Positions 3,814-30,059 of a stretch of 64,000 nucleotides of DNA are shown here, in pieces; the first letter of the stretch is position 1, and each line of letters begins with the position of its first letter. This DNA is from an uncultured Acidobacteriota bacterium (GTDB lineage: Bacteria > Acidobacteriota > Thermoanaerobaculia > UBA5066): positions 896,001 through 960,000 of the forward strand of contig CAVZYA010000002.1 in the NCBI GenBank assembly GCA_963779415.1. Direction: 5' to 3'. The notes beneath the pieces were generated by a model. It saw only the letters and a program-made list of their open reading frames with translations. It searched no databases and was not told the origin of the DNA. The position numbers were made by a program, and so were the translations under genes.

Positions 3814-5136
3814 TCAGCCGCCTGGCGTTCCCTCCTCGGAGAGGATCCTCCGAAGAGAGTCCCAACGGCGCTGCATCTCTTCCGCCCGGGCCTGAAGCGA
3901 ATCCTCGCGGCATCGGCTCTCGGCGAGAGCGCTTCGAAGCAACGAGATCTCCTCTTCGAGAGCCGTAAGGCGGGCTCCGAACCGGACTTCCGCTTCATCG
4001 TGCCCGGTTTCTGCAGTGGGGAGGGGAGGCGGGGATGGCAGCTCCGTGGTTCCCGCCGGCCCTGACGGCTCAACGGCGACGGCTTCGGGAGTCGACGCCG
4101 GCAGCTCTTCCGGCGGGAAAAGCGGAGGGAGCGATCTCGGCGTCGGGATCGCACGCGTCGTCGCGAGATCGGCCTCGGTCGGCAGCTCGCTCGTCGCGAG
4201 CGATGAGTCGAGCGGGGGCTCATCGTCGAAGCCGGGCCCGGCGTCGTCCGACGTCGGCTCCCAACCTTCGGAATCCTCTTCGAGGCCGAGGACTTCGAAC
4301 GCCATGGAAGGAGGAAGCCCGGGCGAGACCGGGAGAAGCTCGGCCTCGGCGGCGGCCGGTTCGGTCCCGGCGGAGACCGGCTCCAGCTCCGGCTCCTCGA
4401 ATACGGCCGACGGCTCGTGAAGGACCGGGGGTGCCATCTCGGCCTGGGCGAAGACCATCTCCGGCGCCTCCGACGCGAGAGCCGGCGCGACCTCCGTGGC
4501 GGCGACGAGCGCCGCGGCCGCGGTCTCGTTCACGCCTGGATCCCCTTTCTGGAGGCGGCGGAGGAGATCCACGAACGTCAACTTCGAGACGAGGCGGAAC
4601 GTCTCGACGATTCCGGCCCCTTCCGTAGCGGACGCCTCGACGAAAGGGTAGGCGGCCAGGTCGAGCGATTCCTGCAGCGTGGCGACGGAAAGGGAGGCCG
4701 GAAGGTCTCGCTTGTTGTACTGGATGACGATGGGAATCCCCTCGAGGGAGGTCCTTTCCCCACGAAGGTTCTCGCGAAGGTTCTGGAACGACTCGAGATT
4801 GTGGGAGAGCATCGCCGGTTGCGAGTCGACGACGAAGACGACGCCGTCCACGCCGCGCAGGACGATCTTTCTCGTCTCGTTGTAGAAGACCTGCCCGGGC
4901 ACGGTGCAGAGCTGGAACCGGACCGTGTACCCCTTGATATTCCCGAGCTCCACCGGGAGGAGGTCGAAGTAGATCGTCCGGTCCTGCGCGGTCGAGAGCG
5001 AGAGGAGTTTCCCCTTCGCGGCGTGGTCGAGCTTCGCGTGCAGGGTGCGGAGGTTCGTCGTCTTTCCGCCGAGGGCGGGGCCGTAGTAGACGATCTTCGC
5101 GGTCAGCTCCCGCGTCGTGTGGTTGAAGAGGGCCAC
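3814..5136 (-). CDS. mglA: MglA-family small GTPase with long acidic/Pro-rich linker and C-terminal coiled coil
   Basis: KIVYYGPALGGKTTNL, DRTIYFDLLP, TVPGQVFYN, GVDGVVFVVDSQ, QYNKRDL in the first ~190 aa; then an E/P/A-rich region and a heptad-like tail. Confidence 0.85.
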   Translation of the reverse strand: MALFNHTTRELTAKIVYYGPALGGKTTNLRTLHAKLDHAAKGKLLSLSTAQDRTIYFDLLPVELGNIKGYTVRFQLCTVPGQVFYNETRKIVLRGVDGVVFVVDSQPAMLSHNLESFQNLRENLRGERTSLEGIPIVIQYNKRDLPASLSVATLQESLDLAAYPFVEASATEGAGIVETFRLVSKLTFVDLLRRLQKGDPGVNETAAAALVAATEVAPALASEAPEMVFAQAEMAPPVLHEPSAVFEEPELEPVSAGTEPAAAEAELLPVSPGLPPSMAFEVLGLEEDSEGWEPTSDDAGPGFDDEPPLDSSLATSELPTEADLATTRAIPTPRSLPPLFPPEELPASTPEAVAVEPSGPAGTTELPSPPPLPTAETGHDEAEVRFGARLTALEEEISLLRSALAESRCREDSLQARAEEMQRRWDSLRRILSEEGTPGG

Positions 5137-5169
5137 GCGCCCTCAGTATAGGACGGGTAACCTAGGGGG

Positions 5170-6021
5170 ATGGGACGGGAACCCCGGGAACGCCTTCGGT
5201 CGACGACCCTCGCGGGTCTCCCCGTCTCCGGGGTTTCGGTCGCCGGGCGCGAGAGCTGGTTTCACTTCCCGACGCTCCGGCTCGCGTTCGATCTCGGGCG
5301 CGCCCCGACCGAGCTCGTGCCGGTCTCCAATCTCTTCCTCTCGCACGCCCATCTCGACCACGCGGCGGGGCTGGCCTGGTGGTGCTCGCAGCGGCGGCTC
5401 CAGCGGATGCCCGGGGGCATCGCGCGGACGCATGCCGATGCCGTTCCACTCTGGCGCGAGATCCTCGCCCTTCATGAGCGGCTCGAAGGGGTCGTGTACG
5501 ACGCGCGCGTCGAGGGGATGGAGCCTGGTGTCCCGCTCTTTCTCCGACGAGACCTGTTCGTGACGGCTTTTCCGGTCGATCACCGCGTCCCGACGCTCGG
5601 GTTCCTCGCGTCGGAGGTGAAGCGAAAGCTCCTTCCCGCGTTCGAAGGGCACGGATCGGAGGAGGTCCGGGAGGCGGCGGCGCGCGGCGAGGCGGTCGCG
5701 CGCGAGGTCGCGACCCCCCTCGTCGCCTATTCGGGGGATACGGCCGAGGGCTTCTTCGACCTCGCCCCGCCGGAAGTCTTCCGGGCGAAGCTGCTTCTTC
5801 TCGAATGCTCTTTCGTCGAGGAGCGGGACCGTGACCGATCTCGCGCCTGGAAGCACCTCCACCTGGCCGAGATCGCGGAACGGGCGGAGCGGTTCGAGAA
5901 CGAGGTTCTCGTCCTGACCCACCTCACGGTCCGGACGACGCCGGAAGCAATCCGGAGAGAGATCGCCCGCCGCCTCCCCGCCCGCCTCGCCGCGCGGACG
6001 GTGGCGTTCCTGCCGGAGTGA
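5170..6021 (+). CDS. MBL-fold metallo-hydrolase, RNase Z-like
   Basis: SHAHLDH (HxHxDH), DHRVPTLG, YSGDT, LLECSF, LTH motifs. Confidence 0.8.
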   Translation: MGREPRERLRSTTLAGLPVSGVSVAGRESWFHFPTLRLAFDLGRAPTELVPVSNLFLSHAHLDHAAGLAWWCSQRRLQRMPGGIARTHADAVPLWREILALHERLEGVVYDARVEGMEPGVPLFLRRDLFVTAFPVDHRVPTLGFLASEVKRKLLPAFEGHGSEEVREAAARGEAVAREVATPLVAYSGDTAEGFFDLAPPEVFRAKLLLLECSFVEERDRDRSRAWKHLHLAEIAERAERFENEVLVLTHLTVRTTPEAIRREIARRLPARLAARTVAFLPE

Positions 6022-6034
6022 GCCCGGTCGCGCT

Positions 6035-6430
6035 CTAGAGGTCGTAGTAGAGCTCGATCTCGTACGGGTGTGGGCGGTTCCGGACCTCGCGATCCTCCTC
6101 CCGCTTCTTCGCGATCCAGCGCGGGATCAGCTCCTCGGGGAAGGGGTCGAGGACGCCGGTCGCGAGGTCGGGGACGAGGACGAGATCTCCCGACTTGACG
6201 GATCGGAGCCCGACGGAGGAGCCGTCGATCCCGACGCCGTCCTCCATCAGGACGGGCGTGAACCGCTCGGCCGGAAGGGTGACGTGCCGCCAGCGCCCGG
6301 CGAGGTCGCAGAACTTGAGATCGACTATCGTGACCCGGCGCTCGCGCGCGAACGCGGCGGCTTCCTCGAAGCAGTGGATCCTGGCAGCACGCTCCGCCTC
6401 GAGCCTACCGGCCGCTCCAGGGTCGGGCAT
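6035..6430 (-). pseudogene. glnA: Internally deleted glutamine synthetase type I (N-terminal domain fused in frame to C-terminal tail); pseudogene or mini-protein
   Basis: N-terminal GS motifs VDLKFCDLAGRWRHVT, GIDGSSV, DLVLVPDLAT..DPF are joined directly to C-terminal GS-like FPEELI..WIAKKREE..VRNRPHPYEIELYYDL; the catalytic domain is absent. Confidence 0.85.
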
Positions 6431-6523
6431 CGGCCGTTTGCGTCAGCGGGATCGGGGCGGGGGCATCACCATAGGACCGAGCGTCGAGGCTCCGATCACA
6501 GAGGCCGGGCACCGCGACGTCGA

Positions 6524-6551
6524 TTGCGGAGGCGATCACGCTCTGTATAAT
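6524..6551 (+). promoter_or_regulatory. Putative sigma70-type promoter
   Basis: TTGCGG-16 nt-TATAAT about 35 nt upstream of the 6586 ORF. Confidence 0.5.
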
Positions 6552-6585
6552 CCACGCCCGTGTCCGAGTCGTCGGAGGACGCTCT

Positions 6586-7110
6586 TTGGCTGTGAACAGG
6601 CGAACGTCATCCCGTCTCTCGTTGGTTCTCGTGGTGGCCCTCGGGGCCGCGTGCGGATCTGTCGGCTGTGGAAGAAGCCCCGCCGAGACGGCACGGCCCG
6701 AGCCTCCCCGCATCCCGCCCCCTCTTCCTCAGGCGGGCTTCCGGGCCGAGATCTCCGTCGCGAAACCTCCTACGAAGCTCAAGGCGAACGAATCAGTCGT
6801 CCTGGACGTGACGGTGAAGAACCTCGGCGACACGCCCTGGCCACACCAGGGGGGGCCGGGAGCCGCCAACGGCGTTCTCCTCTCCTACCACTGGCTGCAG
6901 CCCGGCGCTCCGCTTCCGGTCGCGGATGGCGTCCGGACGAACCTCCCCGCCGACCTCGCCCCGGGCGCCACGGTCGCGCTTCGCGCTACGGTCAAGGCAC
7001 CCGACAAGTCAGGCACCTACATCCTGGAGTTCGACATGGTCCAGGAGGCGGTCACCTGGTTCAAGGCGCAGGGCTCGAAGACCGTTCGCTGCGACGTCAC
7101 GGTCGAGTAG
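6586..7110 (+). CDS. Putative lipoprotein with Ig-like domain
   Basis: Signal peptide with Cys (VVALGAAC); beta-rich domain VTVKNLGDTPW..LSYHW..DLAPG..APDKSGTYILEFDMVQEAVTWF. Confidence 0.7.
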   Translation: MAVNRRTSSRLSLVLVVALGAACGSVGCGRSPAETARPEPPRIPPPLPQAGFRAEISVAKPPTKLKANESVVLDVTVKNLGDTPWPHQGGPGAANGVLLSYHWLQPGAPLPVADGVRTNLPADLAPGATVALRATVKAPDKSGTYILEFDMVQEAVTWFKAQGSKTVRCDVTVE

Positions 7111-7160
7111 CCGGAGGGGAGCGCCGCGCTCTCGCCCGCCGGGCCTGAGGGCGGTCCATG

Positions 7161-8099
7161 TCAGGCGGCGAGCGCGCGCGTCGGGCGCGCGAGAATCACG
7201 GCAGAGTCGAACCTTCCGGTGATGCGAATGGTCGCCGCGAGGACCTCGCCGCCGATCCCCGCCAGGGTTCTGACGAGCGGACGAGTCACGCCGATCCTCT
7301 GCCTGAGGTAATCCGGTTCGAAATCGGGGTCTCCGATCCGTTCGACGACGGAGAGACCCGCCGAATTCAGGAGCTTCTCGGCGGAGGAAGGGGAGAAGTA
7401 GTTGAGGTGCGGAGGCCAGGTCCCCATCTGGTAGAGCTGACGAAGGGTGCCCGGGGCCCCGAGGCGGCTGAGAACCGTTGCGGCGCCAAAAAGGAGGCCC
7501 GCGACAGGCACTTTCATGACGACGATCTCGAGTTCCTTTCCGCACGCGCTCACGATGCTCCGAAGGCCGGCCTGGAGCTGTTCGGGCGGAAAATGCTCGA
7601 GGACGTCCAGGAAGCTGATGACGCGTGGGCGGAACGAGAGCCGCGACAGAACCTCGGCTCCGTCCTCCTTCTCCGGGAGGCGATGGGCTTCGATCCCGGA
7701 TTCTCTCAGGCGTTCCACGGAGACGTCCGACGTGTCCACGCCGGCGACGGGAGCGACTCCCGCTGATTGGCAGGCGTCCAGAAACCATCCCCTCCCGGCG
7801 CCGTAGTCGACGACGCCGGAGAGGTTCGGGACGTGCCGTCGAAGGAGCTCGATGAGGCGTCCCGCTTGCCGGACTCTCGTCGCCCGAAGTGCTTCGAGAA
7901 AGGCGCCGTCGTCGTATTGCCGGTGGTAATCGATGCCGGGGCCTCTCCCCCGTTCGTGAATCGCGACGCGATGGCGGCAGGCGCGACATCGGACGACGAC
8001 GAGGCCGCGAGGCGGGATCGATCGGCCGAGGCTCCTCCCGTCGCAGATCGGGCACCGTCCGGAAGGACCGGGCTCCGGGCGGCTCGTTCCCTCCGGCAC
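7161..8099 (-). CDS. Class I SAM-dependent methyltransferase with N-terminal Zn-ribbon
   Basis: CPIC..CRAC, VVDYGAGRGWFL (motif I), DVLEH, PPHLNYFS; start taken as GTG 8099 just after the GT2 stop. Confidence 0.85.
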   Translation of the reverse strand: MPEGTSRPEPGPSGRCPICDGRSLGRSIPPRGLVVVRCRACRHRVAIHERGRGPGIDYHRQYDDGAFLEALRATRVRQAGRLIELLRRHVPNLSGVVDYGAGRGWFLDACQSAGVAPVAGVDTSDVSVERLRESGIEAHRLPEKEDGAEVLSRLSFRPRVISFLDVLEHFPPEQLQAGLRSIVSACGKELEIVVMKVPVAGLLFGAATVLSRLGAPGTLRQLYQMGTWPPHLNYFSPSSAEKLLNSAGLSVVERIGDPDFEPDYLRQRIGVTRPLVRTLAGIGGEVLAATIRITGRFDSAVILARPTRALAA

Positions 8100-8107
8100 G
8101 GCGCGCG

Positions 8108-9100
8108 TCAACGTTGCGGCCGGCCGGGCTCGTTCTGTATGTCGAGAACGATCGCCTGCAGAAGGAGCTGGAACGCGAGGATGATCGCGAGCGTCCCGAT
8201 CATGACGGTACCCGTCGAGGCCACGACCTTCGTGACGACCGAAAGGTACCAGTGGTAGGCGGACCAGAGGACGCCGAAGACCATGAGGGGAACGCCGGCC
8301 GAGATGAAGACGGAGACGACGGTGAAATCGCGGAGGAAGTAGGCGAATCCGATCCGGCTCACCATCCGCCCGAAGAGCCGCCACGAGAACTCGAAGAGAG
8401 AGCGCCCCGGGCTCAGGGAGCTGATCTCGTCGCCGTAGCGAGGGTGCATCGCCACGTCGACGACGACGCCCCCGGCGCGATACGACTCGCAGAGCAGGCT
8501 GATCTCGAAGAAGTAGCGGTCGGCGAGCCGGGGGCGCCGGATCTCCCGGAGGAGATCGCCCGTGATGGCGATGTAGCCGTTGCAGGGATCGAAGAGGCTC
8601 CAGTAGCCCGAGGCCGCCTTCACGAGAAAGGAAAGGGCGAGGTTGCCGATTCTCCGGAGCGGGGGCATGGCGCTGATGACGGCGAGGTCCGCGAAGCGGT
8701 TTCCCTTGGCGAAGTCCGCCCGGCCCTCGAGGAGAGGAGCGACGAAGGTGGGAATCAGCGAGGGGTCCATCTGGCCGTCGCTGTCGATCTTCACCACGAT
8801 GTCGGCTCCGAGCTGGAGGGCACGGTCGTAGCCGGTCTTCATCGCGCCGCCGACGCCGCGATTGGTCTCGTGGGTCACGAGGAGAACGCGAGGGTCTCCG
8901 ATCCCGGAGACGGCGGCGCCCACGGCGTCCGGGGACGCATCGTCCACGACGATCACGTGTCGGACGCTCGCGGGGATCTGTTCGATCACGGTTCGGATCG
9001 AGGAGACGGCCCGGTAGGCGGGAAGGACGACCGCGATCACCGGAACGTGGTCCGGCGGGCCCTCGAGGACCCTGCTGTCGTACGCGCGACGTCCGTACAT
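8108..9100 (-). CDS. Glycosyltransferase family 2 (polyprenol-phosphate glycosyltransferase-like) with two C-terminal TM helices
   Basis: VVLPAY, VVDDASPD, NRGVGGA, KIDSDGQMDP, KGNRF; hydrophobic C-terminus. Confidence 0.9.
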   Translation of the reverse strand: MYGRRAYDSRVLEGPPDHVPVIAVVLPAYRAVSSIRTVIEQIPASVRHVIVVDDASPDAVGAAVSGIGDPRVLLVTHETNRGVGGAMKTGYDRALQLGADIVVKIDSDGQMDPSLIPTFVAPLLEGRADFAKGNRFADLAVISAMPPLRRIGNLALSFLVKAASGYWSLFDPCNGYIAITGDLLREIRRPRLADRYFFEISLLCESYRAGGVVVDVAMHPRYGDEISSLSPGRSLFEFSWRLFGRMVSRIGFAYFLRDFTVVSVFISAGVPLMVFGVLWSAYHWYLSVVTKVVASTGTVMIGTLAIILAFQLLLQAIVLDIQNEPGRPQR

Positions 9101-9205
9101 TTCCGAGAGGATACCGCGGGCTCGATGGCGCCAGCGGGGCCGGAGTTCCGAATGCCCCTCACGTCCTAGAATGCCCGCGCGCCGGGTCAGCGAAAGGGGG
9201 CAAAG

Positions 9206-9418
9206 GTGATGAGCAGGATCTACAAGAAGCTCGAGGTCGTGGGAACGTCTCCGGTCAGCTTCGCCGAGGCGGTGAAGGGCGCCGTTGCGGAGGCGGCGAA
9301 GACCGTCCGCCAGATGGACTGGTTCGAGGTCATCGAGGAACGCGGGCGGATCGAGAACGGGGCCGTCGCCGAGTTCCAGGTGACGATCAAGATCGGGTTC
9401 CGGCTGGACCGTCCGTGA
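9206..9418 (+). CDS. Dodecin (flavin-binding protein)
   Basis: YKKLEVVGTSPVSFAEAV..WFEVIEERGRI..EFQVTIKIGF, about 70 aa. Confidence 0.92.
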   Translation: MMSRIYKKLEVVGTSPVSFAEAVKGAVAEAAKTVRQMDWFEVIEERGRIENGAVAEFQVTIKIGFRLDRP

Positions 9419-9457
9419 TCCGGTCGAAACGTCGGCGGCGCTCTACCGGTCCGCCTC

Positions 9458-10546
9458 TCAGCGGAAGAGCTTCCGGCGGTTCCGGATGTAGTCGCGGAAG
9501 ATGAAGGTGCCGAGGTCGGTGGGGGAGGCGTAGTAGGCGCGGCCCCGGGCCACCTTCGTCAGCGTATCGACGAAGTCGACGAGCGCCGGGTCGGTCGCGA
9601 TCATGAAGGTCGTCAGCTGGATGCCGTCGCGCCGGCAGCGCTCGGCTTCCTCGAGCGTCCGGTTCACGATCTTGAGGTCCAGCCCGAAAGGATTCTTGTA
9701 GAGGCGCCCCCCTTCGGCGATGCACGAGGGCTTCCCGTCCGTGATCAGGAAGATCTGGCGGTTTCGGGACTTCCGCCGGGAGAGGATCTGCCGCGAGAGC
9801 GCGAGCCCGGCCTTCGTGTTCGTGTGGTACGGCCCGACCTGTGCGCGCGAGAGGTGCTCGATCGGAACCGGCCGCGCCTCGTCGCCGAAGAGGACGACGT
9901 CGATCGTGTCCTTCGGGTACTTCCGGAGGATCAGCTCGGTCAGGGCGAGGGCGACCTTCTTCGCGGGGGTGAAGCGGTCCTCGCCGTAGAGGATCATCGA
10001 GTGGGAGATGTCGATCGCGATCGCGGTCGCGCAGGCCGACTGGTGCTCGACCTCCCAGACCTCGAGGTCGTCGGCCGTCAGGGCCAGCTCCTCGGGATCG
10101 CGGCGCGCGGCGTTCGCGACGGAGCGGAGCCCGTCGAGGCGCGACAGCTCGTCTCCGAACTCCCACGGGCGCGTCTCGGGGAGCGTTTCCGTTCCGGTAC
10201 CGGCCCGCGGGACGGAGTGGAGCCCCGGCCCCGATTTGCCGAGAGACGAGAAGATCTCCTCCAGCGCCGAACGCCGGATCCGGCGCTCCCCGGGGCCGGT
10301 GAGGACGAGGTTCCCCGTGCCGTCCTTCCCGACGAGTCCCTGCTTCTCCAGCTCCTCCCGAAAGGCGTCGAGATCGATCGACGCATCGATGAAACCGCGT
10401 TTCTGAAGCTCCTTCAGCCAGGCGAGCGCCTCTTCGACGTCCCCGCCCGAGCGCGTGACGAGGTCGAGAAAGAGCCGGAGCAGCTCCTCGTACGTCAGGA
10501 GCGCCTGCAGGAGTTCGAGCGGCAGCTCGCCGTAACGGTAGTCCAT
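9458..10546 (-). CDS. VWA domain protein (partner of AAA+ chelatase/MoxR-like ATPase)
   Basis: MIDAS DISHS, TNT, ITDGKPS. Confidence 0.88.
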   Translation of the reverse strand: MDYRYGELPLELLQALLTYEELLRLFLDLVTRSGGDVEEALAWLKELQKRGFIDASIDLDAFREELEKQGLVGKDGTGNLVLTGPGERRIRRSALEEIFSSLGKSGPGLHSVPRAGTGTETLPETRPWEFGDELSRLDGLRSVANAARRDPEELALTADDLEVWEVEHQSACATAIAIDISHSMILYGEDRFTPAKKVALALTELILRKYPKDTIDVVLFGDEARPVPIEHLSRAQVGPYHTNTKAGLALSRQILSRRKSRNRQIFLITDGKPSCIAEGGRLYKNPFGLDLKIVNRTLEEAERCRRDGIQLTTFMIATDPALVDFVDTLTKVARGRAYYASPTDLGTFIFRDYIRNRRKLFR

Positions 10547-10599
10547 TCCTCACGGATGTTACGTTCGGGCCGGGAACCCGGACGGGTGGTATTCCGAAC

Positions 10600-12417
10600 T
10601 CAACCTCGAGACGCGGCGTCCCCGAAAGCCGGCGTTCCGGAAGCCTCCGGGGCGGTGACGACGATCGCGACGAGAGGAATGCGCGTCCATTCGCCCCAGA
10701 GCGACAGCTCGAAGGGAAGCTCGCGCTGAATCGTGAACCCCCGGCGGACGAGTTCCTTTCGCGCGGCCCCGGTGTCCTCTGCCCAGACGAGAGTCGCGAG
10801 GGGACGTTTTCCGAACAGGCGCATGGCGGCGTCCCAGCGGGCCTTGTTCGCCGGAGCGTCGAAGATCGACTCCAGGCGCAGCCCGACCTGGGGAAGCCGC
10901 GGGTCGAGGAGTGCCATGATGCCGTTCGACTTGTAGATCACGTCTACCCATCCCGCGAGCGTGGGGAGGAGGTCCCGGATCTCCGGCGGAAGCTGGCGCA
11001 CGAGGTCCCGGTCGCCTCCGGCGTGCCGGATCTCCTCCCAGGCGTATTTCGGCTCGTGGAGAGCGGTCGGACGGCCCGACCAGTCGCCGATCTTCAGGCA
11101 CTTGAGGACGAGGAGCGACTGGGCGCCGTAGAGGACGAGCGGAACGGCGACGGCCGCGAGGCAGAGAGCGCTCCCCTTGCGCGAGGCGGCCTCGACGCCG
11201 TGCGCGGCGAGGAGGACCAGAACGAGCCCGCCGAGGAGCTCCCCGAAAAGACCGTAGCGGGAAATTCCCGTCCCGAAGCCCCAGAGGATCGACCCCGCGA
11301 GCAGGATGATGGCGAAGCTCTTGAGGCGCCGGTTCCTCAAGGGCGTGAATAGGATCAGGAGTGCCCCGAGAGAGGCCAGGGCGAGCCGTCCCGACGTCTG
11401 CTCCAGCTCGCTCAGTCGCTCGGGATGGAGGGCCGACACGACCGGCCACGCGATGGCCTCCAGGGTAGACCGGGGGCCGAAGCGGCCGTCCCGGATGTTT
11501 ATCGCGGGGAAATAGGGCGAACGGAAGATCGCGTTGTAGTGCGGAAAGAGGGGGCTCCCCGTCGTCCAGAGGAGGTAGAGCATGTGGGGGGCGGCGGGAA
11601 GCAGGAAGGCGAGGGCGCCGAGCGCGAAGGGGACCGCGAGCTTCCTCGGGGCGTGACGGCGCGACTTCAGGAAGAGATTGGCGAGGAAGACGGCGCCGAT
11701 TGCGAAGGCAAAGACGAGGTTCGTCAGCTTCAGGGCGACGGCCACCCCGAGAAGAAGGCCGAAGCGGGGAAGCTCGTCGAGGAGGTTCTTCTCGTTCTCT
11801 TCGTCCGGGATGGCGAGGACGGCGGCCTCCAGGAGAAGCGGCAGGCCGTAGAGGTCGACCATGTAGTTGCCGACCTCCCAGAGGATCCCTTCCGTCCCGA
11901 CGATCCAGAGGGTCGCCGCGGCACGGACTCCCGGCGAGGGGATGACTCGCTCGAGAATCCGGTAGAGGACGGCGCCCGTCCAGAGCATGACGAGCAGGCT
12001 GCCGATCGTCCCGAGCCGGTATCCAAGGGCCAGCCTCAAGATCGCCGAGAGGACGTCGGGGGCCGGATTCAGGAACGGATAGTAGTAGGGGTAGAAGTCG
12101 CCGGGAACGTGGAGAAGGCCGCGGAGGGCACGTTCTCCGTGGAGGATGTGGTAGCTGAGATTGTCGAAGCCGACATCGATGTACGGGACGTGAAGGGCCC
12201 AGAAGACCGCCATGGGGACGCCGAAACCGAGCCAGAAAAGGCGTGGAAGCGGCGGGCTCGGCGTCCGCGTCCGGAGGCGGAGATACGCCAGAAGAGCCGC
12301 CACGGCGAACGACGCCGCCCAGGCGAGTGTCTCCGGCAGAACCCAGAATCCCTCTCGCAGAAGGACGAGGGCGTAAAGGAAGGCGAGGAGGTCGCCGATT
12401 TCGAATCGGATCTTCAT
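10600..12417 (-). CDS. Polytopic membrane protein, possible GT-C-fold glycosyltransferase
   Basis: More than 10 hydrophobic segments, D-x-x-x-Y-H (FDNLSYH) in the first loop, ALKLTN, TGSPLFP. Confidence 0.55.
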   Translation of the reverse strand: MKIRFEIGDLLAFLYALVLLREGFWVLPETLAWAASFAVAALLAYLRLRTRTPSPPLPRLFWLGFGVPMAVFWALHVPYIDVGFDNLSYHILHGERALRGLLHVPGDFYPYYYPFLNPAPDVLSAILRLALGYRLGTIGSLLVMLWTGAVLYRILERVIPSPGVRAAATLWIVGTEGILWEVGNYMVDLYGLPLLLEAAVLAIPDEENEKNLLDELPRFGLLLGVAVALKLTNLVFAFAIGAVFLANLFLKSRRHAPRKLAVPFALGALAFLLPAAPHMLYLLWTTGSPLFPHYNAIFRSPYFPAINIRDGRFGPRSTLEAIAWPVVSALHPERLSELEQTSGRLALASLGALLILFTPLRNRRLKSFAIILLAGSILWGFGTGISRYGLFGELLGGLVLVLLAAHGVEAASRKGSALCLAAVAVPLVLYGAQSLLVLKCLKIGDWSGRPTALHEPKYAWEEIRHAGGDRDLVRQLPPEIRDLLPTLAGWVDVIYKSNGIMALLDPRLPQVGLRLESIFDAPANKARWDAAMRLFGKRPLATLVWAEDTGAARKELVRRGFTIQRELPFELSLWGEWTRIPLVAIVVTAPEASGTPAFGDAASRG

Positions 12418-24865: not shown

Positions 24866-25130
24866 TCAGAGCCGGCGGTAGATGTCGCGGCGGGGGCCGA
24901 TAACCGCCACGGTGACGAAGCGTGCGGCATCGTCGATCCGAAACACGATTCGAAGGTGCCCGACGCGCGCCCTGTAGAGGTCTCGAAACCCCCGTCAGCT
25001 TCTTGACCCCCGAATGGCGGGGCTCCTCGGCGAGCCGGTCGAGCGCGGCCGAAATTCGCGAGCGCTCGGGATCGTGGAGGGAGTTCAGTTCGCGGCGGGC
25101 GGCGGGCAGGAGTGCCAGCCCGTAGCTCAC
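24866..25130 (-). CDS. RelE/ParE family toxin, frameshifted in a G5 run (24989-24993)
   Basis: AARRELNSL..RISAALDRLAEEPR..VKKLTG; removing one G gives FRDLYRARVGHLRIVFRIDDAARFVTVAVIGPRRDIYRRL*. Confidence 0.85.
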
Positions 25131-25375
25131 GGGAGGCGAAGGTCCCGCTTTACCTTCTCTTACGGGATAGGTTTCTCGCGGGGATCGGAGAGGCGCCGCT
25201 GAGCCTCTGCGCCGTCGAGGTAGTCCTCCAGGTCGCGAAGGGCGCGAGCGCCGGCCAGGGGCACGAGCGCGGCGACGGTCTTTCGCCCCTTCTTCACAAG
25301 CACACGCTCTCCGCGCGCGACTCGGGCGACGAGGGCCGGGGGAATCTCAGGGGGTTTCGGAGCGGCACGCGCCAT
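25127..25375 (-). CDS. Phd/YefM-like antitoxin with premature TAA at 25160-25162
   Basis: VARGERVLVKKGRKTVAALVPL..LEDYLD..KPIP*EKVKRDLRLP*; the read-through stop overlaps the toxin GTG (GTGA). Confidence 0.75.
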
Positions 25376-25546
25376 CCACACGATTCTACGCGTTCATTCG
25401 TTCATTCATGCGTTCGAAGGCGGCGGTCGTCAAGCAGCTATCAGACGGCACTACCGAGAACTGACAGCCTGCCGGGATACCTTCGGTCCGCCGGCGCCGC
25501 AGACATGGAGTCTGACCCCAGATCTACTCGGGTTTCGACCCCGGAT

Positions 25547-25876
25547 CTACGACGGGTGGTCGCGCTTCCTCGAGAAGATGATCTCGTCGAGACCGACGAC
25601 GGCATAGGCCGAGATCAAGAGGAGGAAGACTCCCTCCGGCGTGGCGTTGACGACGACCGCTTCCGGTCCCGGGACGTAGGAAGCGACGGTGTCCACCGTC
25701 GTCTGGAGGAGTCCCTCGGCCGCCGTCTCGTCTTCCGCGAGAATCTCCTCGAGCTCGCCCTCCGTGCTGTAGGAAACGGTGTTCCGGTCGTGCCTCAGGA
25801 CGAGGTAACCGCGGCCATGCCGGCGGTATCCCTCGAGCGCCCGGCGCAGAAGCTCGAGTCGAAGCGGGTGCGGCAC
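25547..25876 (-). CDS. Hypothetical protein
   Basis: 109-aa ORF with codon usage typical for the genome and an AGAGG RBS-like sequence at the start. Confidence 0.6.
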   Translation of the reverse strand: MPHPLRLELLRRALEGYRRHGRGYLVLRHDRNTVSYSTEGELEEILAEDETAAEGLLQTTVDTVASYVPGPEAVVVNATPEGVFLLLISAYAVVGLDEIIFSRKRDHPS

Positions 25877-25942
25877 CTCTGGAGATTACCGCCAGGCCGG
25901 GAACGGCCCGGAGCAGCCTGGCGCCGCCTCTGCGTGAACCGG

Positions 25943-26515
25943 TTACTTCATGGCCGGCTTCGGGGCCTCGGCGCGCGGCTCGCTGGAGGGGGGGACGAGC
26001 CCCTTGATCCGCATGTAGGTGACCATGTTGCCGTAGTGCTCCCAGTCGTGGCCGATCAGGAGGCCGACGACGGCGAAGCGGTTCGTCTCCGCTCCGAAGA
26101 GCTTCGTCCGGGTCGCGAGGTCGGAGTCGGTCGTCGCGAACGCCTTGTCGGCCGCGGCGAAGGACTCCTTGAGCGCGGCGACGAGGTCGGCCTTCGAGGT
26201 CTTCGTCTTCTCGATGTCGTGCGGAGCCGGCTTCTCGCCCGCGGCCATCGCGGCGAACATGAAGTTCGCGTCGGCGACGTGGCCGACGAGCTGCCCGAAG
26301 CTCCGGACGTCCGGGGAGGGCTTGAAGGCGTAGTTTTCCTCCGGCATCTTCTCGGCGGCCCGGATGACGAGATCCTTTGCGCGGGTCCAGGGCCCCTTGA
26401 GGCCCGTGACGGCGGGGTTCGGGGAGGGCGCGGTCGGGGCCGCCGCGACGCCGGGACCCTGGGCAGCGGCGGGAAGGGAGAGGGCGGCGGAGAGGATCAG
26501 AACGCGAGCTTTCAT
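25943..26515 (-). CDS. Secreted DinB family protein
   Basis: Signal peptide; AAEKMPEENYAFKP..RSFGQLVGHVA..HDWEHYGNMVTYMRIKGLVPP. Confidence 0.9.
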   Translation of the reverse strand: MKARVLILSAALSLPAAAQGPGVAAAPTAPSPNPAVTGLKGPWTRAKDLVIRAAEKMPEENYAFKPSPDVRSFGQLVGHVADANFMFAAMAAGEKPAPHDIEKTKTSKADLVAALKESFAAADKAFATTDSDLATRTKLFGAETNRFAVVGLLIGHDWEHYGNMVTYMRIKGLVPPSSEPRAEAPKPAMK

Positions 26516-26661
26516 GGGAACCTCCACCCCGGGACGATATCGCGAAGGCGTCTCAACCGTGCTCCTTCGTTCCGGGGCAGGCCGTCCGGTCGGCACCCCG
26601 GCGCTTTGGCGGCCCCGGTGGGGCGAGGGGACCGGCGTTTTTGTCCGAAACCCCGTAGAAT

Positions 26662-26677
26662 CCAACAATCCTGTAGG
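26662..26677. promoter_or_regulatory. Palindromic ACA-N4-TGT site upstream of the NifA-like gene
   Basis: CCAACAatccTGTAGG, similar to the sites at 28244-28290. Confidence 0.5.
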
Positions 26678-26686
26678 ATTCGCCCG

Positions 26687-28243
26687 ATGCCGCGCCCGCG
26701 TCCCGCACCGGCAAACGAAGCCCGCGAGCTGTCCGCGCTTCTCGAGCTGTCCCAGCTCCTCGGGTCGGCGCGGGGCCTGGGGTCGGTCCTCGACGGAGCG
26801 GCCGAAGTGCTCCGGGAGACGTACGACGCCGCTGGAGTGGCCGTGGCGCTCGTCCACGAGCCGGACGGCGATCTTCGGCTCGCCGCGGCCGCGGGCCTTC
26901 CGGCGGCCCGGCGCTCCTCGATGCGGCTGAAGCCGGGCGAGGCGATCACGGGGCGCGTCGTCTCGAGCGGAAAGCCCGTCGTCGTGCCGCAGGTCTCGCG
27001 CGAGCCGCTCCTCCGGACACCGCACGAGATCCTCGCCGCCTCCGACGCCTCGAAGAGGGAGCTGAGCCTCGTCTCGGTGCCGCTCGTCGTCGACCGGAAG
27101 GTGGTCGGCGCCCTCGCCCTCATCCTCCCGCACGAGCCGTCGCGCGACTTTCCGCGGAAAACCTCCTTCCTGAAGGTCGTCGCGTCGCTCTTCGGGCAGG
27201 CGATGCACGTCGACCGGCTCATCGAGGCGGAGCGGCAGCGCCTCCTCGACGAGAACCGGAAGCTGAAGCGGGAGCTGAAGGGGCGGTACGAGCTGAAGAA
27301 CATCGTGGGGCACAGCCGCGCGATGGAAGAGCTCTACGAGCAGGTGGCCCAGGCGGCGCCGAGCGACACGACCGTCCTGATCCGGGGCGAATCGGGGACC
27401 GGAAAGGAGCTGATCGCCCACGCCGTCCACTACAACTCCCCCCGGGCCGCCAAGCCGTTCGTGAAGGTGAGCTGCGCGGCGCTCCCCGAGAGCCTCATCG
27501 AGTCGGAGCTCTTCGGCTACGAGCCGGGCGCTTTCACGGACGCCCGCGCGCAGAAGAAGGGGCGCTTCGAGCTGGCCGACGGCGGGACGCTCTTTCTGGA
27601 CGAGGTGGGGGACCTCTCTCCCGCGACGCAGGTGAAGCTCCTCCGCGTCCTCCAGGAGCGCGAGTTCGAGCGCCTCGGCGGCGTCGCGCCGATCGCCGTC
27701 GACGTGCGGCTCGTCACCGCCACGAACCGCGACCTCGACGCCGCCATGGCGAAGGGGACCTTCCGCGACGACCTCTATTACCGCCTCAACGTCTTCACGA
27801 TCTTCGTGCCGCCTCTCCGGGACCGCCGGCCGGACATTCCGCTCCTCGCGGACCATTTCGTCGAGAAGTACGCGCGCCGGCACCGCCGGGACGTGCGGCG
27901 GATCTCGACACCTGCGATCGACATGCTGATGAGCTACCACTGGCCGGGGAACGTCCGGGAGCTGGAGAACGCGATCGAGCGGGCCGTCCTCGTCTGCGAA
28001 GGGGGCGTCCTTCATGCCCACCACCTCCCTCCGACGCTCCAGACGGCGGAAGTCTCGGGGACCCTTCCGCGGCAGTCGCTCGGCGAGGCGATGGACGCGT
28101 TCGAGAAGGACCTCCTCCTCGACGCGCTGAAGATCGCCCGCGGCAACCGGGCCAAGGCGGCGCGCCTTCTCCGGACGACGGAGAGGATCTTCGGCTACCG
28201 CCTGAAGCGCCACGGGATCGAGGCGGCCCGCTTCCGTCCCTGA
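26687..28243 (+). CDS. NifA-like GAF-AAA+-HTH sigma54 enhancer-binding protein
   Basis: GAF (GEAITGRV..GKPVVVPQVSREP), [51 protein letters not shown]. Confidence 0.92.
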   Translation: MPRPRPAPANEARELSALLELSQLLGSARGLGSVLDGAAEVLRETYDAAGVAVALVHEPDGDLRLAAAAGLPAARRSSMRLKPGEAITGRVVSSGKPVVVPQVSREPLLRTPHEILAASDASKRELSLVSVPLVVDRKVVGALALILPHEPSRDFPRKTSFLKVVASLFGQAMHVDRLIEAERQRLLDENRKLKRELKGRYELKNIVGHSRAMEELYEQVAQAAPSDTTVLIRGESGTGKELIAHAVHYNSPRAAKPFVKVSCAALPESLIESELFGYEPGAFTDARAQKKGRFELADGGTLFLDEVGDLSPATQVKLLRVLQEREFERLGGVAPIAVDVRLVTATNRDLDAAMAKGTFRDDLYYRLNVFTIFVPPLRDRRPDIPLLADHFVEKYARRHRRDVRRISTPAIDMLMSYHWPGNVRELENAIERAVLVCEGGVLHAHHLPPTLQTAEVSGTLPRQSLGEAMDAFEKDLLLDALKIARGNRAKAARLLRTTERIFGYRLKRHGIEAARFRP

Positions 28244-28395: not shown

Positions 28396-29700
28396 ATGAA
28401 CGGAGCCGACATCGCCTGGGTCCTCGTCGCCACCGCCCTCGTCCTTCTGATGACCCCCGCCCTCGCCTTCTTCTACGGCGGGCTCGTCCGCTCGAAGAAC
28501 GCGCTGAACACGATGATGATGAGCGTCTCGGCGCTGGGCTTCGTCGGCGTGGCGTGGGCCGTCCTCGGCTACTCGCTCGCGTTCGCGCCCGGGTCGGCGG
28601 GGATCGGAGACCTCTCGCACGCCTTCCTGCGCGGGGTCGGCCTCGGCGCGGCGCCCTCGGCGACGACCATCCCCCACCTTCTCTTCATGGCGTTTCAGGG
28701 GACCTTCGCGATCATCACGGCGGCGCTGATCTCGGGCGCCATCGTCGAGCGGAAGCGGTTTTCGGCCTACCTCCTCTTCATCACGCTCTGGTCCCTCTTG
28801 GTCTACGCCCCCGTCGCGCACTGGGTCTGGGGGGGCGGCTTCCTCGCGAAGCTCGGCGCCCTCGACTTCGCCGGCGGGACCGTCGTCCACATCAACGCCG
28901 GAGCGGCCGCCCTCGTCGCGGCGATCCTCCTCGGACCCCGGAAGGACTTCGCGAGGCAGGCGACGCTGCCGCACCACGTCCCGTTCGTCCTCCTCGGCGC
29001 CGGGCTCCTCTGGTTCGGCTGGTTCGGCTTCAACGGGGGGAGCGCTCTCGCCGCGAACGCCTCGGCCGTCCTCGCCTTCGTCAACACGCTCCTCGCCCCG
29101 ATGGCGACCCTCGTCGTCTGGACGCTGCTCGACCTGAAACGGAACGGCCGCGTGACGGCCGTCGGGGCCGCGACGGGCATCGTCGTCGGGCTCGTCGCCG
29201 TGACGCCGGCGGCGGGCTTCGTGTCGCCTCTCTCGGCCGCTCGCCCTCGGCGCCGTCGCCGCCTTCCCGAGCTACTTCGCGATCCTCTACCGGGCCCGGA
29301 CGCGCCTCGACGACTCGCTCGACGTCGTCGCCGCGCACGGTCTCGGCGGCACGGTCGGCGCTCTCCTGACGGGCGTCCTCGCCGAGAAGGCGTGGAACGG
29401 GACGGCGGACGGGCTCCTCTTCGGCAACGTCCGCCAGTTCTTCGTCCAGCTCCTCGCCGTCGCCGTCACGATCGCTTTCAGCGGCGGCGGCGACGTTTCT
29501 CCTCCTCAAGCTCGTGAACCTCGTGATCCCGCTCAAGGTCGGTCTGCGCGACGAGGGGATGGGGCTCGACGTCTCGCAGCACGGCGAGGAGGCGTATGGC
29601 TCCGGCGAGGGCGCCATCCTGATCCTGCCGGGCGCGAGGCGGTCGACGGCCGAGCCGCTCCTCGCCGGCGACGCCGGTCCCCGAAGGAGGCCGCGCGTGA
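28396..29700 (+). CDS. amtB: Ammonium transporter AmtB (three apparent +1 indels near 29239, 29489, 29667)
   Basis: LMTPALAFFYGGLVRSKN, FQGTFAIIT, DFAGGTVVH, LWFGWFGFNGGS, GLVAVTPAAG, DDSLDVVAAHG, EGMGLDVSQHGE. Confidence 0.93.
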
Positions 29701-30059
29701 AGCTCGTCGTCGCCATCGTCCGTCCCGAGAAGCTCAACGACGTCCTCGAGGCGCTCTTCGAGGCCGAGGTCCGGGGCCTCTCCCTCTCCCGCGTGCAGGG
29801 GCACGGCGGCGAGATGGACCGCGTGGAGACCTATCGCGGCACGACCGTGAAGATGGAGCTGTCCGAGAAGGTCCGGCTCGAGATCGGCGTCTCGGACCAC
29901 TTCGTCGAGCCGACCGTCAAGGCGATCCTCTCCTCCGCACGGACCGGCGAGGTCGGAGACGGAAAGATCTTCGTCCTCCCCGTCGAGAAGGTCTTCCGGA
30001 TCCGGTCGGGAGAGGAGGACCAGGCCGCCGTCACGCCGATCGCGAGCGCGGCCGCCTGA
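29697..30059 (+). CDS. glnK: PII nitrogen regulatory protein
   Basis: GGAGG RBS plus GTG; AIVRPEKL, T-loop YRG, ARTGEVGDGKIFV; adjacent to amtB. Confidence 0.9.
   Translation: MKLVVAIVRPEKLNDVLEALFEAEVRGLSLSRVQGHGGEMDRVETYRGTTVKMELSEKVRLEIGVSDHFVEPTVKAILSSARTGEVGDGKIFVLPVEKVFRIRSGEEDQAAVTPIASAAA

Follow-up and report, generated by a model that had tools for sequence, protein, structure and literature searches.

What is a 131-codon open reading frame (ORF) that begins like a type I glutamine synthetase (GS), ends like one and is missing everything between? The ORF lies in a stretch of 64,000 nucleotides (the window, G000:C2:896001-960000) of an uncultured acidobacterial genome, G000, which is assembled in 3 contigs of 4.36 Mb. 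The original prediction for this locus had offered three answers, namely a recent deletion pseudogene, an assembly collapse, and a dominant-negative or assembly modulator of GS. We find that the first is upheld by full-length orthologues in relatives, a clean loss of 1071 nt between repeats, a lost start and independent decay in congeners: the ORF is very probably what remains of a dispensable third type I GS paralogue, either a recently formed pseudogene or at best a remnant that is still translated but has no function. The window features discussed below are listed in Table 1.

Table 1. Features of the window at the locus of the short GS-like ORF and nitrogen-related genes, with positions counted from the first nucleotide of the window
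Feature	Position	Strand	Remarks
Short ORF	6035..6430	-	131 codons plus stop, ATG start; probable remnant of a third type I GS paralogue
Codons 1-100	6131..6430	-	16-codon leader and GS beta-grasp without its last strand (Pfam profile 2-70 versus 2-81; models)
Codons 101-131	6038..6130	-	extreme C-terminal helix and tail of GS (2bvc_A 451-486; 91% nt identity to the G007 tail)
Deletion junction zone	6127..6149	-	23 nt (ORF nt 282-304) matching both ends of the missing 1071 nt
Codons 17-18, AGG ATC	6377..6382	-	ATG TTY, the orthologues' start, behind a GGAGG-like site in five aligned relatives
VWA-domain gene	9458..10546	-	in G007, G002 and G003 separated from the GS start by at most about 35 nt
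Metallo-beta-lactamase-fold (MBL) gene	5170..6021	+	convergent with the short ORF; conserved far boundary of the variable locus
Block of about 3 kb	6441..9457	.	found only in G000; between the short ORF and its usual upstream neighbour, the VWA gene
Sigma-54 activator with GAF domain	25112-28243		
Ammonium transporter	from 28384		
P-II	29700-30014		

Domain content of the short ORF

The ORF had been described as an intact 131-residue frame on the reverse strand in which a GS N-terminal domain is joined to the extreme C-terminus, and Pfam searches and comparison with a solved structure bear this description out. The Gln-synt_N profile (PF03951) matches residues 33-100 over its positions 2-70 of 82, with an E-value of 2.8e-18 and 65.7 bits (cut-off 33.4), and the Gln-synt_C profile (PF00120) of the catalytic domain matches residues 96-128 only, over its very last positions, 312-344 of 344, with an E-value of 0.19 and 11.2 bits, below the cut-off of 24. 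The GlnA equivalog model TIGR00653 likewise gives 69.2 bits, to be set against a cut-off of 429.15. On the 486 residues of the solved GS 2bvc_A, residues 26-98 of the ORF align to 19-92 and residues 97-131 to 451-486. To judge from these alignments, the fusion of an N-domain to the extreme C-terminal GS tail is a fact and not chance, and the ORF, with scores far under the family cut-offs, cannot be an enzyme. Its codon composition is gene-like, with a third-position G+C of 0.89. Among known proteins, those that it resembles are the type I synthetases (GlnA; PF03951 plus PF00120, TIGR00653; structures 2bvc and 1f52), from a gene of which it descends; its N part is 75% and its tail 92% identical to the intact orthologue in the related genome G007. 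It differs from them in being without 357 codons, a loss that covers the final strand of the beta-grasp and all of the catalytic domain.

The original prediction had held that the catalytic part is gone but both assembly elements remain. This is right for the tail helix, which is kept; the N-domain is incomplete. The N-terminal profile is covered over positions 2-81 of its 82 in the G007 protein and over 1-81 in other intact proteins, and the match to the ORF, well above the cut-off as it is, stops at 70. AlphaFold models, which are supporting evidence only as they were built on different alignments and as AlphaFold does not gauge stability, give a mean pLDDT of 59.6 for the ORF (25-row alignment), with residues 69-98 below 50, and of 78.9 for residues 1-131 of the G007 protein (13-row alignment), where a hairpin is formed by residues 83-94 and 102-111. 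The strand at 102-111 of this control is the one that was deleted. On the profile coverage and the models together, the last beta-grasp strand is missing from the ORF.

Full-length orthologues and the deletion

We searched for relatives of the ORF in 41 genomes of the same order, G000 included. In 13 of these, all of the same family, a strong match to the N part (49-75% identity) is accompanied by a separate match to the tail about 1.1 kb off. With the 488-residue G007 protein as query, 12 of the 13 orthologous loci give one single-frame match over 472-488 residues; the thirteenth, in G002, is split over frames. The conserved GS blocks, including the catalytic ones, are kept throughout the aligned orthologues, and the intact G007 protein scores 353 bits on Gln-synt_C. 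The other two families of the order, in a tally that includes the unpublished genomes G030 and G025, show paralogue-level matches only (31-34%). A full-length glnA elsewhere in the genome had been suggested as something to look for, and G000 has two other full-length GS genes, near 320860-322299 of C1 and near 1371378-1372658 of C2, with Pfam domains complete where tested. The nearer of these is only 39% identical to the ORF in the N-domain, so that neither can have been copied recently to give the ORF. It is instead orthologous to the intact GSI paralogue that stands beside the same neighbours within the genus: both ends of the G007 gene are matched at 86-88% nucleotide identity, and the VWA and MBL genes are shared.

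The outline of the loss is sharp. In blastn comparisons, nucleotides 1-304 of the ORF align to nucleotides 1-304 of the 1467-nt G007 gene (86% identity) and nucleotides 282-394 to 1353-1465 (88%), so that relative to its orthologue the window gene lacks exactly 1071 nt (357 codons), and a stretch of 23 nt matches both ends of the missing segment. In the intact gene this stretch is an imperfect direct repeat: the two G007 sites agree at 16 of 23 nt; the first, which follows the N-domain, encodes DPFPEE and the second, which precedes the tail, DVFPAD, both in a common codon phase. Because both copies share this phase the frame was kept after the deletion, and the peptide that spans the junction contains VLDPFPEELIPRW. 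The junction had been predicted near 6141-6144, which falls within the zone of overlap, and a microhomology had been proposed there between DPF and GVF; this comes close, the repeat being of the form D-x-F-P-x-(E/D), with DPFPEE against DVFPAD. We propose that an ancestral gene of about 472-488 codons lost the 1071 nt in one event, with the break between these two short imperfect repeats, which, being in phase, would make the product in-frame by construction. The event would have removed the last beta-grasp strand along with the whole catalytic domain, probably through replication slippage or another form of illegitimate recombination. With 12 of 13 orthologous loci intact and an essential part absent here, the gene has one of the marks of a pseudogene.

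One further sequence touches on the junction: a 199-nt record (record 10) of the dataset X2 fits positions 6085-6143 and then continues unlike the window, and it might stem from an undeleted allele with a C-side repeat that reads like that of the window. Patterns for the peptide FPEELIPRWI had no match in the metagenome_contigs and genome_contigs collections.

Translation start and leader

An alignment of the 5' ends at the DNA level places an ATG TTY behind a purine-rich, GGAGG-like site in all five relatives compared (G007, G002, G003, G024 and G019), and the database orthologues start with MF, i.e. at this point. The corresponding codons of the window have changed, and the start codon itself has become AGG. 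The frame stays open only because of an upstream in-frame ATG at 6428-6430, which opens the ORF in the window and before which no Shine-Dalgarno-like site is visible. Thus the translation signals used by the orthologues are lost, and an upstream in-frame ATG persists, at which translation could still begin. A scan of positions 5800-7200 with promoter consensuses, all for sigma-70-type sites, and terminator consensuses found none.

The upstream ATG is itself the end of a 13-nt motif, CAAACGGCC(C/G)ATG, at 6428-6440 on the reverse strand, which is found about 50 nt before the GS start in all six aligned sequences from two genera (L007, L008, L009, L010 and L028 in the relatives, with one mismatch in G003). 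A frame of 8 codons begins at its ATG in G024, G019 and G002 and is closed by TAA or TAG ahead of the GS start; the frame runs through into GS in G007 and G000. On this pattern of conservation the motif may be a leader ORF or an operator.

Decay of the gene within the genus

The eight genomes of the genus display the third GS paralogue in a range of conditions: 1) in G007 the gene is intact. 2) In G002 it is full length but in several frames, as is the VWA gene, which is also split. We considered G002 as a second pseudogene and rejected it, as the neighbouring VWA gene is likewise multi-frame and assembly indels are equally likely in this 65%-complete assembly (L008 / L027). 3) In G000 it carries the 1071-nt deletion. 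4) In G003 a stub of about 50 codons is left (L028 9337-9486), 64% identical to G007, in which the conserved cysteine of DLKFCDL has become arginine; it lacks what corresponds to G007 coordinates 8076-9527, which is a different, independent deletion with other end points. 5) In G005 the MBL gene abuts the VWA gene and there is no GS. 6) In G004 no GS is found within 1.5 kb of the VWA gene, and the genome (86% complete) has only a paralogue-level match. 7) From G001 (75% complete) and G006 (87% complete) no VWA locus could be recovered. Comparison of these loci indicates that the third GS paralogue is evidently dispensable in the genus, and G000 would rely on its two other full-length GS genes.

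The surroundings of the gene have been no more stable. In the window the stop of the short ORF lies 13 nt from that of the MBL gene, and on the other side homology to G007 ends at 6440 and resumes at 9458, with 3017 nt in between. This block contains, by Pfam, an Ig-like 174-aa ORF (+), a 407-aa methyltransferase (-), a 330-aa family 2 glycosyltransferase (-) and a 70-aa ORF, and is absent from the loci of G007, G003, G002 and G005. A repeat search around it recovered no flanking repeats that would account for an insertion, and Rfam had no match on 5000-10800 at E-values up to 1. The block would have come to separate the remnant from the VWA gene behind which the orthologues sit. Between GS and the MBL gene, a pair of HlyD-family and AcrB-family efflux genes is present in G007 (L026 9479-13800) and G003 (L028 4920-9388); the interval holds other genes in G002 and none in G000 and G005. 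Going by gene order in these genomes, the locus is a hot spot of variation within the genus. Two records of the soil metagenome X1 (records 3 and 4) turn unlike the window just past the end of the MBL gene and past the stop of the short ORF; the X1 population may have other DNA between the two.

Age of the deletion and changes since

Over the 115 retained codons counted from the orthologues' start, G000 and G007 differ with a dS of 0.371 and a dN of 0.044, a ratio of 0.118 that mostly reflects the time before the deletion and therefore neither discriminates between the readings nor speaks of constraint since that event; in the same columns the intact orthologues of G007 and G019 give a dN/dS of 0.162. 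Nor is the lineage comparison lopsided, with 4 amino-acid changes on the G000 and 3 on the G007 branch (G024 excluded). The retained parts are 90% and 91% identical in nucleotides to G007, similar to the flanking intact genes (VWA 87.5%, MBL 82%), and the deletion is therefore young relative to the split of G000 and G007.

A view of the time after the deletion is afforded by the soil metagenome X1 (Logan contigs), in which a 285-nt contig aligns end to end with positions 6106-6390 at 97% identity, with 9 differences and no gap. Its depth is 3.7, and only 25 of its letters lie beyond the junction on the tail side, fewer than the 31 set for a bridging contig; it carries the junction in that there is no difference at all within 6106-6139. 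Six of the differences are nonsynonymous (R17M, I18F, C20R, I35M, L38F and D95H) and 3 synonymous, on 209.2 and 72.8 sites respectively, giving a ratio of about 0.7 in what is a small sample of n=9 from one low-depth contig. For this one contig, 6 or more nonsynonymous changes among 9 would have a probability of 0.011 if the ratio were 0.118; a ratio of 1.0 is compatible with the count. With the orthologues as outgroup, M17R, F18I and M35I are changes of the G000 lineage, L38F and D95H of the X1 lineage; the columns of F18, M35, L38 and D95 show no or almost no variation. As the X1 contig still reads ATG TTC at codons 17-18, the start was lost after the deletion.

The original prediction had also pointed to the lack of stops and frameshifts in the ORF, which is uninformative. 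The window has 69% G+C, and 64% of its six-frame positions lie in open stretches of at least 131 aa; the opposite strand has two spurious ORFs, of 160 and 317 aa, that overlap the short ORF, and a single-base change in the ORF would give rise to a stop in only 2.9% of cases.

Search for a conserved short form

A functional short protein might be sought in other organisms, and we looked for it among proteins of 72-230 aa in a collection of 5.8 billion sequences. Only the window's own protein among the 25 matches in this length range spans the whole query. The other 24 short homologues are 12 fragments of the N side and 12 of the tail side, and none (0/24) joins both parts. A degenerate DNA pattern for the junction peptide had no match in 241 million metagenome records and the genome collection, from which the window's own genome was possibly excluded, and a shorter junction pattern had none in both collections either. 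Literature listings and the opening parts of abstracts mention no bacterial mini-GS or glnA remnant of such kind. The original prediction had itself named full-length glnA genes at this locus in relatives, with no conserved short form, among the findings that would refute it; this is what the relatives present.

Alternative readings

The rival that fares best, though we consider it very unlikely, is a functional mini-protein of 131 aa, read from the upstream ATG, whose partial beta-grasp and helix modulate or poison the assembly of the GS dodecamer as a dominant-negative microprotein. It draws on the open frame with its in-frame ATG, on the preservation of the tail that aligns to the last 36 residues of GSI, at 91% nucleotide identity to G007, and on a junction that is apparently undisrupted in a second strain about 3% diverged (X1), and G000 does have two full-length synthetases as possible targets. 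Against it, the last strand of the domain is missing, and the model is of low confidence over residues 69-98. The start used by the orthologues is gone and the upstream ATG has no visible ribosome-binding site of the Shine-Dalgarno type; the changes since the deletion, 6 nonsynonymous to 3 synonymous, include invariant positions; and the N-domain is only 39% identical to that of the nearer GS of the same cell. No short form is conserved (0/24, and no pattern match in two collections), all 13 orthologous loci in relatives are full length, and congeners have lost the gene outright. With the beta-grasp incomplete and the openness of the frame uninformative, the idea of a dominant-negative or assembly modulator finds no support.

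A version of this idea, to which we give slightly less credence still, would make it a novelty: the deletion allele would be kept in the soil population (in G000 and perhaps X1) and translated into a protein of about 115-131 aa whose partial beta-grasp and C-terminal helix enter the dodecamers of the two remaining GS paralogues and damp GS activity, as a newly born dominant-negative microprotein. If it were true that the product acts on GS assembly, it would offer a rare view of a regulator at birth.

The least credible reading is an assembly artefact, in which the true gene is full length and 1071 nt between the repeats went missing at the hands of the assembler or polisher. There may be indel problems elsewhere in the assembly, as each of the two ammonium transporter genes is spread over two frames, and none of the 5 DNA runs listed contains more than 0.11 of the sampled words, with no RNA run among the matches. 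But imperfect repeats of at most 23 nt are much shorter than a collapse would need in an assembly of 3 contigs, an independent contig from X1 crosses the junction without a gap at 97% identity, the same copy has both an altered start codon and rearranged DNA upstream, neither of which would result from a collapse, and the same gene has suffered other deletions in congeners. The pseudogene thus stays as the preferred reading, with a product that would be functionless.

Relation to known pseudogenes and GS regulators

Bacterial pseudogenes can arise by deletion between short direct repeats, and the remnant resembles these. It shares with them an internal loss bounded by a short imperfect repeat, intact orthologues in relatives and, within the genus, beside the same neighbours, a lost start and parallel loss in related genomes, and constraint on it may be relaxed; it is different in that its repeats stand in the same codon phase, whereby the frame of the product stays open and gives the impression of a two-part protein made by design. 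Small regulators of GS are also known, such as the cyanobacterial inactivating factors IF7 and IF17 and sP26 of Methanosarcina, as are truncated dominant-negative 'microproteins'. IF7, IF17 and sP26 are conserved genes not known to be related in sequence to GS, and the likeness lies only in the idea of a small protein that could bind GS, whereas the ORF of the window is a unique GS fragment without conserved short relatives.

The remnant matters little beyond annotation, where it should be flagged as a GS remnant and not as a 'glutamine synthetase beta-grasp domain-containing protein' to which a role is ascribed. It does illustrate that in genomes of high G+C an in-frame deletion between phase-sharing repeats leaves a tidy ORF that can mimic a mini-protein, and that openness alone is no evidence of function. 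It also shows the third GS paralogue of an acidobacterial family to be dispensable in one genus, whose genomes have it whole, with an internal deletion, as a stub or not at all.

Nitrogen-related genes in the window

A nitrogen-control locus had been predicted about 20 kb from the ORF. The genes are there, 19-24 kb off (Table 1); nothing ties them to the ORF. The ammonium transporter among them (28414-29485) is split over two frames: its profile positions 1-277 end at 29238 and 278-362 resume at 29240, at a site that is not a homopolymer. A second ammonium transporter of the genome, at G000:C1:470377-471677, is split as well, between profile positions 60 and 83. The two splits could mean that the nitrogen uptake genes are truly decaying, or that the assembly contains indel errors.
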